Positions 1 through 59,378 of a stretch of 64,000 bases of DNA are shown here, piece by piece; position 1 is the first letter of the stretch; each line of letters starts with the position of its first letter. The position numbers and the translations under genes were made by a program. Origin of the DNA: Rhizaria sp. SCN 62-66 (taxonomy: Eukaryota). Location: positions 1-64,000 of the forward strand of contig MEDY01000110.1 in the NCBI GenBank assembly GCA_001724265.1, written 5' to 3'. Under the pieces are notes generated by a model. It did not search any database. It was not told the DNA's origin and worked only from the letters and a program-made list of their open reading frames with translations.

Positions 1-1566
1 ATCCTTATCCCTGTCGGTGTGCTCATCAGCTTGCTCTTCGGCCGCTCTCAGCAGGGCCGTCTTAAGTCTGCGATTTACGGTTACGCGGAGCACGTGGCTT
101 ATCTGCATTACACGAACCGCATTTCTGAGCCGCAGTACGCGACCCGTAATGAGAACCGCATGAAGCGCAACCCAGTCGTGAGTGACGAAGACGAGCGCGT
201 GCTGTTGCACTCGATCGCGCAGGCCGGCGGCTGGACGCACGGTCCCGGCAATGCGTTGATTGCTGAGAACGCTCGTGGCACGCGTGACGATCGTGAGCTG
301 CGTAATCAGCTGCGCTTACTTGTGCACATTGACTATGATTTGTTCATGGTCTGGTTCCGCGAGTCGTGGTCGTTCCCACTTGGTCTTCGTCTCTTTGGCT
401 TTGTGCTGCTCTGGGCCTATGTCATTGTGCTTGTGATGCTGATCCTCGTCTATGGCATTCAGCTCGACATGGACAACAGCAACAACACCATGAGGTGGCT
501 GCAGGCCTCCGCGATCTCCAACGTCATTGAGATCTTTGCGTTGAAGCCCGTCAGTGTCTGTATCAAGGCTTTTGTGATGCTTGTCCTTTCGTTCTGTTTC
601 TGCGGCGGCAAGCCCAAGGGCCCTGCGTCCAAGTCGACTCCTGACGACAACTTGACTATTTACAACGCTATCGAGATGTTCTCCGCCTCCGGCGCGGGCA
701 AGGGCCACAAGCACGTAGCCGCCGACCTTGCGCTCGACATCGGTGCCCCAGAGCACGCTACTGGCTTTGTTGCAGCTGCGACAGACTACGATGATGACAA
801 CTACGCGACGCTCCAGAACTCGAGCTCCAACTTTGGCAACAACAGCAAACACACTCCGACAGCTCCAGCTGCAGTTGAGATGATGGCTCTTGGTGGCGCT
901 CGTGCGAAGTATGAGGCAGTGCACTCGACGCCAGCGTCGCCCGTTGCTGCTGTGCCACCACCCGTGCCCGCAGCGCCGTACGGTTACAAAGACGATTATT
1001 ACGACCACAATGGTGCTGGTAATAGCAACACCCACAACGGTTACAACGACGATTGGAGCGAGACTCATAATGAGCCCGAACCTGTGCCAGTGCCTGTTGT
1101 TGTTGCAATGCCCCCACCTCCACCTCCTGTCGCTCTAGTGCCACCCCCTCCGCCGCCGCATGCTGTTATCGTGGCACCGCCTCTGCCGCCACCAGTCATT
1201 GTTGCGCCGCCGCCGCCGCCACCTGTCGCCGCGGTCCAGCACCCCGCACCTGTGCGCCTGGTTGTGCCCTCGCCGCCGTTGTCTTCGTTGCACACGGCGC
1301 AGCGCGGTGAGACCGAGTCACTGGCACCAGGCCACACGCCCACAGTGCCTGCTCTGCCCGCGCCCAGCGGCGGCGTGCCCGTCATGGGAACGCGCTCTGT
1401 GCTGGCGTACCAAGAGCGCGAAGCCTCCGCCTCCGTGTCGGAGTCTGTAGCTACAGGAACGGCGAGCCCCGGCGCGTTGACGCGGGTGCCCATGCCACTG
1501 CCCGCGCGCATCAAGGCCGAGTACGCGCGACAGGAGAGCTTTTACGATGAGCCATAGAACAACTAA
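1..1566 (+). CDS. 3' part of a PKD1/REJ(polycystin)-like multi-pass membrane protein with a Pro-rich cytoplasmic tail (5'-truncated)
   Basis: Frame +1 is open from base 1. Hydrophobic segments ILIPVGVLISLLFGRS, LFGFVLLWAYVIVLVMLILVYGIQL and WLQASAISNVIEIFALKPV resemble PKD1-family transmembrane segments, followed by a polyPro tail. Ends at TAG 1555-1557 under the standard code, or at TAA 1564-1566 if TAG is sense. Confidence 0.55.
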
Positions 1567-2705: not shown

Positions 2706-5700
2706 ATGTCTGAGAAGCCTCCCGTGCACGTGGGCCCCGCCCCGCCCCCTATGGCTTCCGCTTCTCCGATGCTGATGCCTACTGCGTCTTCTGTGTTTTC
2801 TCCTGGTGCTGCAGCTCCTGTAGGACAGTCCAGTAGCCTATCCGGCGCCGCCCCACGCGCCACCCTCACGTCCTCTTCCCGCCACCAGGACCTCCGCGAC
2901 TTGGCCAAGCGCAAACAATAGGAGCTCGTTGAGGTGCAAGAGCTCCGCATCCGTGAAAGCGAAGCCCGCTACGAGTGCGCGGAGCGCGAAGCTCGCGAGG
3001 CGCGCGATAGCCTTGCGCGGCTCAAAGACGACTTCACATACAACCTCAAACTGTTGGAGGAGAGGGACGAAGAGCTCCGCCGTTACGACGCCTCATTCGA
3101 TAGCCTCAAGCTCTTATTGCATGAACGCGACGCATCACTTGCCGCACTGCACCGCCGGTGTGATGCCGCTGAGTCTGAGGGCCGTCAGGGCAGTCTGCTT
3201 TCGCAAGAGCGCGAGTCCGCACTCCAACGACAGGTCGCGCTCCTCACAGCCGAAGCCTCGCGTTTAGCTGCCGCGCGCGAGGACGAGCTCGCATCAACAC
3301 GCGCGGCTTACGAAGCGACAATTGCGGCACTGTCCGCGAAGCTGCAACAAGACGAGGCTGCGCGCACCGAGGATTCCCGCCGGCTCGCCAGTTCCTACGA
3401 CCGCGCGCTGCAGGAGCAGGCGCTGACGACCCGCCTCGCAGACGAGGCCCGCGCCCAAGAGCACGCTGCCGACGCCGCGCGCGTGCAGACGCTCGAGGCC
3501 GACATTGCTGCGTTGCGCGGCGCTTTGGCAGCGCGCGACGGCAATGCGCATGCGCTGGAGACCGCTCTGGCGTCGGTGCAGGCGCGCGTCGACAGGTTGA
3601 CGGCGGAGCGCGAGGAGGCCGAGCGTGAGGCTGCTGCCCTGGCGACGCGCATGCGTGCCGAGCTTGAGGAGCTCCGTAGCGAGCGCGCGCGCGTGGTGCG
3701 AGACCGCGCCGCCGCTGTTTCGGAGGCTGAACGGCGCGCGACGGCTGCGGAGCGCGCGCTCAAGGCCGCTGTCGCCGCGCAGGAGGCTGAAACAGCAGCC
3801 TGGGAGCGGCGCTTTGCCGATGCAGCGTCACACAGGCTTGCACAGTTTGAACAAATCAAGCAGCAGGTGGCTGCGCTGCGGGAGAAACATCGCGCCGATC
3901 TGGCCTCCGCGCGCGCCGCAGCTGCGGCCTCGCAACAAGAGGCCGACGCAACGATCAAGCGCGCGCACGACGACGTTCGCGCTCACGCCGCTGAGGCCGA
4001 GGCGACGCGCGCACAGGCACGAGCTGACGTTGCGGCCGCACAGGACGGGCAGTGGCGCGCTGAGGCCGCCGCTACAGCCGCAGAGGCCCGCGCAGTGCGC
4101 GCCGAGAGCGCCACAAATGATGCTGAACGCGCTGCGCAGATTGCGCGAGCAGAGGCCGCCGCGGCCGCCGAGGCTGCTGCGGCGGCGCTTGCCCAGGCGG
4201 CATCGCAGACAGAGGCAGCGGCCGCTGCGCTGACCGCTGCGCGCGCCGACGCAGACGCCGCGCGTGCCGAAGCTGCGGCCGCGCGCACAGCGACTGAGAG
4301 CGCTCTGCAGGCCGTTGCGGCAGCGCAGCGCGCGAACGAGGCGACAGCTCTGGAGCGTGATGCGGCCGCGGGCGAGGCGCAGCGGCTGCGGGATGAGCGT
4401 GGCGAGCTCGTCACACGCATTGGCGAGTCCGCCGCGGCCGAGCGCGCCGCAGTGGCCGCACTTGAAAGCCAGCTCGAGGCTCTGCGCGCGCGTGTTGTCG
4501 CTGCGGAAGCCGCCGCTGACGAAGCCCGCGCCGCGAAGTCGACCGCCGAGGCTGCACTTGCCGCTGCGCACACTGCGACAGCAGCTGCGGAGGCTGACGG
4601 GCGGTCACGGCTTGAGGCGTTATCGACTGCGAGCGAAGCCGCGATCCGCGCCGTGCACGTGCGCGTTGGCACTGACGTTCACGCGATGGAGGCCGTCGTC
4701 GCAGATTTGCGCGGGGAGGTATCGGAGCTGCGGGACAAGCTCTCGCTTGCACAGGCCACGACAGCAGAGCTCGAGGCGCTGCTGGAGGAGAACGCGCGCG
4801 CGCTGGGCGCGTCCCAGCAAGCGCTGGGGAAGAGCGAACAGGCGCGCGCGGAGGCCGCGGAGGTGCGCGCGCGCGAGCGAGACATGCTCGTGGCGGAGCT
4901 GGAGCGGCGCAATGCGACTGTCACCGCGGGCGCGAGCGCGGTAGCGCGTGCAGCGGAGGAAGCGCGGCTGTCGCTGCGCAACCGGCTGCAGTTGCACCGG
5001 GAGCGCGTTCCCGTGCTGCGCTCCCGTGTGGGCGACAAGATCCAGGGCCACTACAGCGACGGCGACGGTAACGGCGACGACGATGACGGCGATCATGAAC
5101 ACCACACTCATAGTGGCGATGACGACGACGGTGACAACAATGGGAGCTTTGGCGGTGATGACTCGCCCCCGAGCTCGGTGCACAGTGCCGGCGGCGGCGG
5201 CGGCCGCAATCACAACGACACTAACGGCCGTCGCAACAACCACGCGAAGAATCACGGCAATAGCAATAACTGGATAGAGGAGAGCCTTGCGGAGGTCAAC
5301 ATCGACGAGTTCCGCTACAAATCGCCTCGGTTTGACTTGAAGTCAAGTCGTCCTGGCGCAGGTATGAGCTCGAGCCTCATAAATACCGGCGCTACCAATG
5401 GCAATGTGGGCAGCAGTGCGTGCCCGAAGCAGAGCAACGGCGCCGGTCACGGTCACGGTCCCACTGGTCCCACAGCTGTGTCACCACCCCGCTCTGCGCG
5501 CTTGTTCGAGGGTCCTTTTGAGCCTGCGAATGCGGCGCGTGTTGCGAACACTCCGGGCACTGGCAGGCTCAGCGCTGTGTTGGCAACGCCGCGCCCCTCG
5601 CAGCCCGCGCCCGCGCCTGCGGCCACTGCGGGCGCTGACGCGAGCGACGTGGAGGCCCAGCGTGAGTTAGCTGCGCTGCGCGCGGTGAACGCGCGGCTGC

Positions 5701-7097
5701 AAGGCGTTGTCGGCGAGATGCGGCAAGAGCTTGAGACGCTGCACACGCGTCTGCAACACGCGCAGTCACAGCACGGCGCGCAGTCGCAATTTAACGCGCC
5801 GGCGAGCACTGACGCTGCAGCGGTGACGGCGCTGCAGCGGCGCATTGCACTTCTTGATGAGCACAACCGCGTTTTGATGGCGCAGGCTGACAGCGCTGGC
5901 GCTGTGGGCGCTGGCGCGAGTGCTAATGCCACCAGTGAGTTGGCGTTCCTTCGGCAGAAGGTTTATTCTTTGCAGGAGGAGGTTGCGGAGACCACGCGCA
6001 CTGCTGCAACACTGCGCGCTTCGCTTGCGCGCGCCGCCGCTGCCGCGAACACGAGCTCGACCGCCGCAGATGCTGCGGCTGGTGGAGGCACGGGCGGCGG
6101 TGACGCCGAGGTATCTCGCCTGCGCGCACGCACCCGTGCCTTAGATGCAGAGCTTGCGGCTACGCGCGACGCACTTGAGCGTGTTGCTGCAGAGCGACAG
6201 CACGTCCAGGGCGTTGCAGAAAAGCTCCGTGCGGACTTGGCCGCAGCAGCGAAGCTCTACGGTTCTCAGGCACAGTCCGGTCCACAGTCGCAGACGCAGG
6301 CCCAGCTCTTACACTCACAATTGCCGCCTGCTGGCCCTGGCTTTACATACGCCTTTGCGCCCCGTGCGCCTGCTGCGCCCGCCGCGGCCCCTGCCGGCGC
6401 ACTTGCTGGCGCTCCAGCAACAGCGGGAACGACAGCAGCAGCAGTGATGGCGCCCGGACAAAGCCAGGTCCAGACGCACGCGCGCGTGGCTGTGGCCGCG
6501 CCGGGGTCAGCCCTGGCTCCTGCTGCCGCCGCAGCGCCCGCTGTTGCGACCGTGGCCGACGTCAACCGCCACCTTGACGTCGCTGCTGTGCGCGGCGATG
6601 TCATTGCGTACCTGACCGAGTACAACAAACTCATCACTGCGCTTGCACCGACGCCTGCCGCGATAGGTGTGGTTGCAACGACGACTGTTCCTGTCGCTGC
6701 GCCTTACTTAGGTGCCAACGCACCGCGGAACACAGGCACTGCAGGTGCCTCCGTCGCAGGCCGCCGCGCGGCTACGGGTGCAAGTACCTCAACCACAGCC
6801 GCATCGTCCACAGCTACCCGCGTTGCCACCACCAGTCCCGGAGTTGGCGCTGCGGGCGGTGCTGGTGCGTCTCCCAGCGCGCGCCGCCACTCCGCGACCG
6901 CCGCCGTCACACCGGCTGGCGCAGCCGCTGGGGCTGCGGGCGCTGTGGGCAGCAGGGGCACGGCGTCGCAGGCGCAGGCGGCTGAGGCGATGCAGAGGCG
7001 CCGGCGCGAGCGCGAGGCCGAGGTGGAAGAGCGGCTGCGGGCAAGGTAGGCCGCGCTTGCGAGGATCAATCGGGATGCACGCACCACGCAGCAGTAA
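2706..7097 (+). CDS. CCDC57: Coiled-coil domain-containing protein 57 homologue (centriolar), about 1463 aa, with two in-frame TAG codons (2919-2921, 7047-7049)
   Basis: LKDDFTYNLKLLEERDEELRRYDASF matches the CCDC57 N-terminal motif (human LQEDFVYNLQVLEERDLELERYDAAF, recalled). ORFs 2694-2921 and 2934-7049 share a frame and are separated by a single TAG. ATG at 2706. After the second TAG, 15 coding-like codons lead to TAA at 7095-7097. Confidence 0.75.
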
Positions 7098-57400: not shown

Positions 57401-59378
57401 TGCTCGATGCGCGCGCCGTGCGCAGCCAGCGCGGCCGTGAGGTCGGCGATCGGCCGCTGGTGCATGCGGGCGACGCCGTGGAGTTTGATCGACCGCAGGG
57501 ACAGCGGCTGCGCGTTGGCGTCACCAGCGGCATTGATGGGCTTGAATCGCGCATAGCACAGCAACGCCGTGAGAAACCTTGCTGCAGTCCCGGCGTTGCC
57601 CACAAACAGCGACGTCTCGCCGGGCGGCAGTGAGAAGACGCCGCGGCAGCCGGTCACGGTGACTGTCGGCTCAGAGTTGAGGTGACTGTGAGCAGCAACC
57701 TCGATAGTGACACCGAGTTGACGCAAGCACGTGATCATCACCTATTCATCCAATAAAACAGGAATAAAATTAACAAGAAGGTGATGTGAGCAATGCGGAT
57801 TTGTAGGAGATATCCATAAGCGTATGTGTCGGTTTGCTTTGCTCGGAATATTCATGCACGAACCTCTGTGTCATCAGAGTGAAGCAGCCCCCTGAGCACC
57901 GTGACACCTGTGCCCAGAGCAGCCATCACGAGCGCGCGATTCGAGATGGACTTCGAGCCAGGCACAGTGACCGCGCCGACGACGGGCTGCGGCAGAGGGA
58001 GCGCCCAGGCGCCTGCACCGTCAGCCACAGTGCTGTCAGGTCGCGTGCTGTGTGAAATTGCAACGGCGGTGGCGAGGACGCGTTCGAGGACAGGGCGGCT
58101 CAACACATGAGTACACCCGCCGCGCTTCGCACTGTTAGCTGCGATCGCGGAGGGGGCGAGCGCGCGCCAAAGAGTTGTTCCCGCCTCATAGTCCGTACAG
58201 GGCTGCTAAGGACACTGCTCGCAGTTGCCACATGCGTTACAGTCACTCGTTGAAGCATCCGCAGTGGGGTCGCTGTCGGAGCCCTTGCTCTCGAGCGCGA
58301 CGTCGCCGAGCGCCCTCAACAGCACGCTCCGGACGTTACCACCGACGTTCTTCTTGTCGACGCCCATTGCCGCAATGACGTGCCCCGTCGTCAGGTGCGC
58401 AGGCGTCTCCACAGGCAGCTTGTACGCCCGCAGCACGCGCTTGGCGCGCTCCACCAGCGCCACGTCGGTCAGTGCGCCGGTGCGGGCCGCGATCTCCAGC
58501 TCGAGCACAAGCCCGACGCTGACGGCCTCGCCGTGCAACAGGTCCGGCGTCGCCAACGCCTCAAGCCCGTGGCCCAGCGTGTGGCCCGCGTTGAGGACCG
58601 CGCGCACCCAACGCTCCTGTGGGTCCGCGCTCACAACCGCGGCCTTGACTCGCGCAGTGTCGTGCAGGATGCGCCGCAGTGTCAGGGGCTCGCGTTGGGT
58701 AAGTACCTGGGCCGCGGAGGCCTCGCAGAGCGCAAAGAGCGCGGGCGCAGCAATGAGGCCCGTCTTGATCACCTCAGCCATGCCGTTAGAGAGCTCGCGC
58801 AGCGGCAGCGTGGTCAGGAAGAGCGGGGACAGCAGCACGGCCAGCGGGTGGTGGAAGGCACCGATAAGGTTCTTGCCCTTGGCGGTGTCGATCGCAGTTT
58901 TCCCGCCAATCGCGGAGTCGACCATAGCGAGCAGTGTGGTGGGGATCTGAATACAGGGCACGCCGCGCATGTAGGTCGCAGCAATGAAGCCCGCGAGGTC
59001 GCCGATCACGCCGCCGCCGAGCGCGATGATGACGGTGTCGCGGCCGCAGCGGTGCGCCAGCAGAGTGTCTTCGCAGTGGGCCTTGGCGGCGCGGGACTTG
59101 CTGGATTCGCCCGCAGAAAAAACGTGCTGGATAACGCGGCGCGAGGACGGGAGCAACGCCGACAGGGCTGAGGCGAGGGACGGGGCGAAGAGCAATGACG
59201 TGTTGTCATCAGACAACAGAGCGAAAACGCCGGCGGACGGCGCGAGGGAAAGAATACGCGCTGCAAGCGCGGGGTAAAGTTCGGGCAAGGAGGAACTGTT
59301 GTCAAACTCAATTGGATAGTGGAATCCGGTGCCAGACACCGTGATCACTTCAGCGGGATTGCCGAGAGGGGCCGACAT
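51489..59378 (-). CDS. ARO1: Pentafunctional AROM (DHQ synthase, EPSP synthase, shikimate kinase, type I DHQase, shikimate dehydrogenase), about 2498 aa; exons 59378-57864, 57741-54145, 53993-52905, 52784-51489; in-frame TAG at 58208-58206
   Basis: [84 protein letters not shown]. DHQase: [49 protein letters not shown]. Three phase-0 GT-AG introns restore the frame. Stop TAA. Confidence 0.9.

Follow-up and report, generated by a model that had tools for sequence, protein, structure and literature searches.

In nuclear genetic codes, UAG has been separated from UAA in only a handful of lineages (PMC11687900). In Iotanema spirale, UAG is read as glutamine and the release factor eRF1 carries a T32G exchange; standard-code relatives keep the GTS motif. 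Residue T32 of eRF1 forms a bond with the G at the third base of UAG (PMC5304391 and PMC9161772 for both statements). In yeast eRF1, T32A is lethal, and E107A and E104K are viable and reduce readthrough (PMC4381064, PMC2665212).

The locus described here lies in the window, i.e., the whole stretch of 64,000 nucleotides that was analysed. It is a pentafunctional AROM gene on the minus strand with a TAG in its reading frame. This TAG appears to be one of many affected by a change in how TAG is decoded throughout the genome, the cause of which is not specific to AROM.

The AROM gene and its in-frame TAG

Pfam domains assign DHQ synthase (DHQS) to the part upstream of the TAG and EPSP synthase (EPSPS), shikimate kinase, type I DHQase and shikimate dehydrogenase to the part downstream. 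The gene is built as follows:

57864..59378, minus strand: AROM exon 1 with DHQS, an insertion, the last DHQS helix and the start of EPSPS; ATG at 59378, 505 codons
58113..58280, minus strand: lineage-specific insertion (about 56 residues) within the final DHQS loop, delimited by homolog spacing; contains the TAG
58206..58208, minus strand: in-frame TAG in exon 1, supported by the single frame and by contigs from other runs
57742..57863, minus strand: AROM intron 1, donor GTTCGT, GC 0.38, typical for introns of this genome
51489..57741, minus strand: remaining AROM (EPSPS, shikimate kinase, type I DHQase, shikimate dehydrogenase), ending in TAA, with two further introns (donors GTACGA and GTACGT)

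One frame runs through the site, from CEQCP over the TAG (58208-58206, minus strand) to QPCTDYEAG and two later segments of 13 and 11 residues (not shown). Together with the Pfam domains on both sides, this agrees with the first-pass annotation, which had placed an in-frame TAG within AROM just before the last DHQS helix. The spacing from DKKN to PGSKS amounts to 132 residues, whereas the median across 119 homologs is 57, and a comparable insertion at the identical place is present in one AROM homolog (P0021). Close AROM relatives were not found in the homolog search, and the top match (P0001) owed its high score solely to being an internal duplication. Within the insertion (58206-58243, minus strand), a CxxCxxCxxC pattern precedes the TAG and a further Cys follows three codons past it, resembling a metal-binding motif.

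The TAG is genomic and not a sequencing error, as had been assumed from the start, because contigs from other runs span the site without differences. A contig of run X2, which belongs to a separate study from 2025, covers 57907-58808, and a contig of runs X3 and X4, which appear to be a single data set deposited twice, covers 58116-58908; both show 0 differences. The identical AROM TAG sequence was thus recovered in separate studies whose runs lie roughly a decade apart. In the sole RNA run (X5), which is of low depth with DNA-like contigs and unspliced introns, none of the listed contigs spans the AROM TAG, and the one at 58262-58479 ends short of it.

TAG across the genome and in eRF1

A codon-model scan of stop-codon flanks was run on 108 sequences (929,742 nt) and required each flank to reach a coding score above 5; 17 loci had been picked for a flagged TAG and the remaining loci had not. 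Coding flanks on both sides were found for 14 of 2168 TAG triplets, three of these 14 lying in domains fetched since a search had flagged the TAG, compared with none of 8886 TGA and none of 1494 TAA triplets. Transitions from coding to non-coding sequence fell on TAA in 53 cases, on TGA in 28 and on TAG in seven. All seven TAG "ends" continue in frame, as six resume coding and the seventh reaches a TGA after 16 codons. TAG therefore serves as a true terminator at no more than one of 88 ends (0-1) in this sample, which covers 0.93 of 34.9 Mb and excludes the TAG at window position 1555. UAA and UGA are kept as stops and are absent in frame from the sampled coding interiors.

Genes with an in-frame TAG inside intact conserved sequence comprise eRF1, kinases, SUV3, Rab, chromodomain, USP and AROM. 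A lone TAG was seen in 9/142 kinase rows, five of them mid-exon and four at intron acceptors; TAA and TGA cases among the kinases were intron read-ins in the three rows inspected out of five. The DEAD family search gave one row with a candidate TAG (C40), and searches of the kinesin, ABC, AAA, WD40 and SNF2 families gave no new mid-exon TAG. In a Ser-rich gene elsewhere in the genome (L073:6490-6925, minus strand), four in-frame TAGs fall within about 150 codons. Three more TAG triplets in the window are listed here:

2919..2921, plus strand: second mid-frame TAG of the window, between LAKRKQ and ELVEVQ, upstream of a 1375-codon frame
7047..7049, plus strand: TAG followed by 15 in-frame codons (ending in QQ) and TAA, from frame reading
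1555..1557, plus strand: TAG followed by two in-frame codons and TAA, either a sense codon or the first of two stops in tandem

By our estimate, TAG occurs as a sense codon roughly once per 5,000-8,000 codons. The window also holds a stop-free open frame of 7438 codons (7425-29741, minus strand), and the lack of any TAG in this frame agrees with that frequency. In a GC-rich genome, usage this low would be expected if the codon was captured recently or is decoded poorly.

A single eRF1 gene was found in the genome, and it carries an in-frame TAG itself (L003:1594-1596, i.e., G000 C63, minus strand); other matches of the eRF1 search look, in our reading, like pelota. This TAG lies mid-exon at human position 107, in sequence colinear with human eRF1 and devoid of indels, and is followed by AAAAAG. 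The first intron of the gene starts with GTCCGT. A second assembly (L116) contains the identical eRF1 gene including the TAG, and the nearest homolog, a metagenomic protein (P0124), is 84% identical and has an unchanged T32. Since the yeast E107A and E104K mutants are viable, the position tolerates substitution.

Altogether, we consider it about 85% probable that UAG has been dropped as a terminator and is read as an amino acid while TAA and TGA stay stops, a UAG-only reassignment like that of NCBI table 15. For AROM, the TAG is most likely a sense codon within a tolerant insertion, from which full-length AROM is made. The initial expectation that AROM stays one polypeptide through a TAG that is read is thus most likely right, given TAGs in intact coding frames genome-wide and gene ends that avoid TAG.

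The alternative that survives best is an in-frame intron in AROM whose splicing removes the TAG, whatever TAG means elsewhere. The likeliest form is this:

58139..58240, minus strand: rival 102-nt intron from GTAACG to CAG, with GC 0.63 and a +5 base other than G, whose excision would take the TAG with it

The first-pass annotation had judged upstream GTs unusable, which no longer stands; that check took only tccttag or tagcag as acceptors, and with the CAG at 58139 as acceptor, GT donors at 58246, 58240, 58231 and 58213 each yield an intron of the GT-AG type that is in frame. The intron 58240-58139 has a pyrimidine run ahead of its CAG, the insertion would be shorter without it, and the sequence on either side of the AROM TAG scores poorly as coding (2.7 and -2.2 in the coding model). 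Its GC content, however, contrasts with 0.28-0.38 in the real introns of AROM, whose donors GTTCGT, GTACGA and GTACGT all have the G at +5 that GTAACG does not have. GTAACG was the donor in none of 124 ab initio introns, whose callers are noisy and were used for donor counts only, and a donor site of this kind after coding sequence was followed by non-coding sequence in 2/23 cases compared with 25/80 for GTACGT. As an intron in AROM would also explain none of the other TAGs, splicing is improbable.

Even less probable is a site-specific programmed readthrough that yields a short DHQS form beside full-length AROM, as had been proposed on the grounds that TAG CAG CCC resembles a leaky context. 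Readthrough of the tobacco mosaic virus type uses UAG-CAR-YYA. A CAG does follow the AROM TAG, and CA follows the TAG at 9 of 36 hand-picked sites compared with a background of 10.5% (P=0.01), a hint of a context effect. The AROM context CAGCCC, however, is no match to CAR-YYA since its +9 base is C, and none of the 36 sites matches; the eRF1 TAG is followed by AAAAAG. In-frame TAGs occur genome-wide in unrelated contexts, eRF1 itself carries one, and elsewhere in the sampled genome practically no gene ends in TAG. A product ending at the AROM TAG would, moreover, be devoid of the last DHQS helix.

A nonsense allele, a split of AROM into two genes or a sequencing error, to which the position near a domain boundary would lend itself, can practically be dismissed: the sequence is the same in runs from different studies; a separate transcript start for the EPSPS part, raised as a possibility at first, has no in-frame ATG ahead of the EPSPS motif (the first one, at 57926, comes after a segment of 11 residues, not shown); decay would have produced coding-flanked TGA and TAA too; and the essential eRF1 could not be cut at residue 107.

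Proposed decoding of UAG and the probable residue

The stop-reading motifs of the eRF1 N domain are altered by T32S, G57S and T58K, the latter two adjoining NIKS. Neither T32S nor G57S occurs in any of 117 homologs, and T58K occurs in one, the closest relative. Other changes in the N domain are M34V, T99E and F114V. Recognition of UAG by eRF1 may have been lost or weakened through T32S, together with G57S and T58K beside NIKS, as judged from the sequence. UAG would then be decoded by some tRNA, whether one with a CUA anticodon that the assembly does not contain or a near-cognate tRNA, and the inserted residue would be polar, with glutamine as the likeliest.

A CUA tRNA was found neither by ARAGORN on 28, 12, 20 and 8 loci nor with six sequence patterns, and the assembly may be incomplete. 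Of the tRNA candidates, 63/506 were scored; one of the patterns was able to catch anticodon-only variants of Gln, Glu, Lys and Ser tRNAs, and three were too narrow for Gln or Glu variants. Likewise, a suppressor tRNA was not found for Hartmannula and Trochilia (PMC11687900).

As to the residue, summed Pfam bits over eight domain sites are 422.5 for Glu, 420.4 for Gln, 420.2 for Lys, 416.3 for Ser, 410.3 for Tyr, 409.6 for Leu and 404.5 for Trp. Glu, Gln and Lys thus lie within 2.3 bits, and Tyr, Leu and Trp are lower by 10 bits or more. Leucine, as in table 16, was rejected since it scores 11-13 bits worse than Gln and Glu. Glutamine is favoured, with somewhat better than even odds. Homologs of one kinase (L036) with at least 50% identity have Gln in 6/17 cases, including the two closest, and Glu in 1/17; one TAG lies inside a polyQ tract and another stands in place of a Gln found in the genome's own ubiquitin copies. 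Against glutamine, the column of the eRF1 TAG holds Glu in 106/117 homologs and Gln in none, with Val in the closest relative. An internal repeat that pairs TAG with GAG speaks for glutamate, which is nevertheless a rather unlikely candidate, and a mixture of Gln, Lys and Tyr inserted by near-cognate tRNAs is equally doubtful. Alignments to PDB structures (SUV3, NEK-like kinase, USP5, chromodomain) did not separate Gln from Glu. In a genome-wide polyQ/polyE pattern search with 119 matches, the six sampled and 16 others viewed were all in other frames.

Flank models rejected an origin of at least half of the sites from CAG (P=0.003). They fit no single residue, and under mixtures the residues are indistinguishable, which suggests that the TAG sites are of mixed origin. 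A more specific version of the reassignment, to which we give only a small chance, is a codon caught in mid-capture: eRF1 would have released UAG before any cognate tRNA took over, near-cognate tRNAs would insert Gln, Lys or Tyr at low efficiency, TAG would be confined to sites that are tolerant and of mixed origin, about a thousand in number, and eRF1 synthesis would depend on readthrough, so that eRF1 would be under negative feedback in a cellular eukaryote.

Affiliation of the organism and comparison with known codes

The nearest HSP90 homolog is a metagenomic protein with 88% identity. Ubiquitin is unusually divergent and starts with MSMQIF in 6/6 copies with an intact start (L213, L216-L218; G000 C3, C168, C182, C370); the extra MS may be taken as a weak hint at Rhizaria. 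A polyubiquitin monomer junction was looked for and none was found. Another locus (L215, G000 C681:1512-4727; GC 0.48) encodes a ubiquitin domain joined to an N-terminal region with repeats and to a tail that resembles a viral intramolecular chaperone; the locus may be a mobile or virus-like element. An SSU rRNA gene that is divergent and AT-rich extends over 4.4 kb with apparently several self-splicing introns (L002, G000 C706:4459-8903) and may or may not belong to the same organism.

With standard-code annotation, AROM, eRF1 and, by estimate, roughly a thousand other sites are truncated. Usage is so low that detectors needing many conserved sites would probably miss this code, and such codes may be under-counted. 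An early stage of codon capture may be on view. Since eRF1 is changed at T32 both here and in Iotanema, the T32 hypothesis becomes testable in a second lineage.

A context-dependent stop code as in Blastocrithidia, Condylostoma or Amoebophrya Kv was rejected, since TAG is essentially absent from gene ends and TAA and TGA from interiors. Judged by genomic features, the organism would fall among the UAG-only reassignments, with UAG in frame and not used as terminator, UAA and UGA as stops, and an altered eRF1. In the literature searched, which included few subscription journals and no supplements, no report matched this case.

Several known codes are close to this one. Iotanema spirale (UAG as Gln, UAA and UGA as stops) shares the UAG-only change, UAA as main stop and an eRF1 altered at T32 of GTS, by T32G compared with T32S here (PMC5304391, PMC9161772). 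UAG makes up about 8% of Gln codons in Iotanema (PMC5304391, PMC9161772), whereas it is estimated at well under 1% here. The TAG within eRF1 is a feature of the present genome. The phyllopharyngean ciliates Hartmannula and Trochilia (table 15) and the TARA metagenome-assembled genomes (table 16) share UAG as sense codon, UAA kept as stop and a code deduced from assemblies (PMC11687900). The two former, which use Gln, are also alike in that no suppressor tRNA was found (PMC11687900), whereas the three Leu genomes have 1131-2431 conserved UAG sites (PMC11687900), in contrast to a rare UAG in a GC-rich genome with no ciliate sign. The rhizarian exLh (UAG as Leu) is likewise an uncultured protist with a UAG-only reassignment (PMC5304391), but it keeps GTS intact (PMC5304391), and Leu is disfavoured here. 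Oligohymenophorea sp. PL0344 (UAG as Glu, UAA as Lys) is a precedent for Glu, the second candidate here (PMC10553269); unlike here, it also reassigns UAA and has many suppressor tRNAs (PMC10553269). The present case may have arisen independently of the known reassignments and is probably a new member of the UAG-only group, unusual in its very low UAG usage and its TAG-bearing eRF1.
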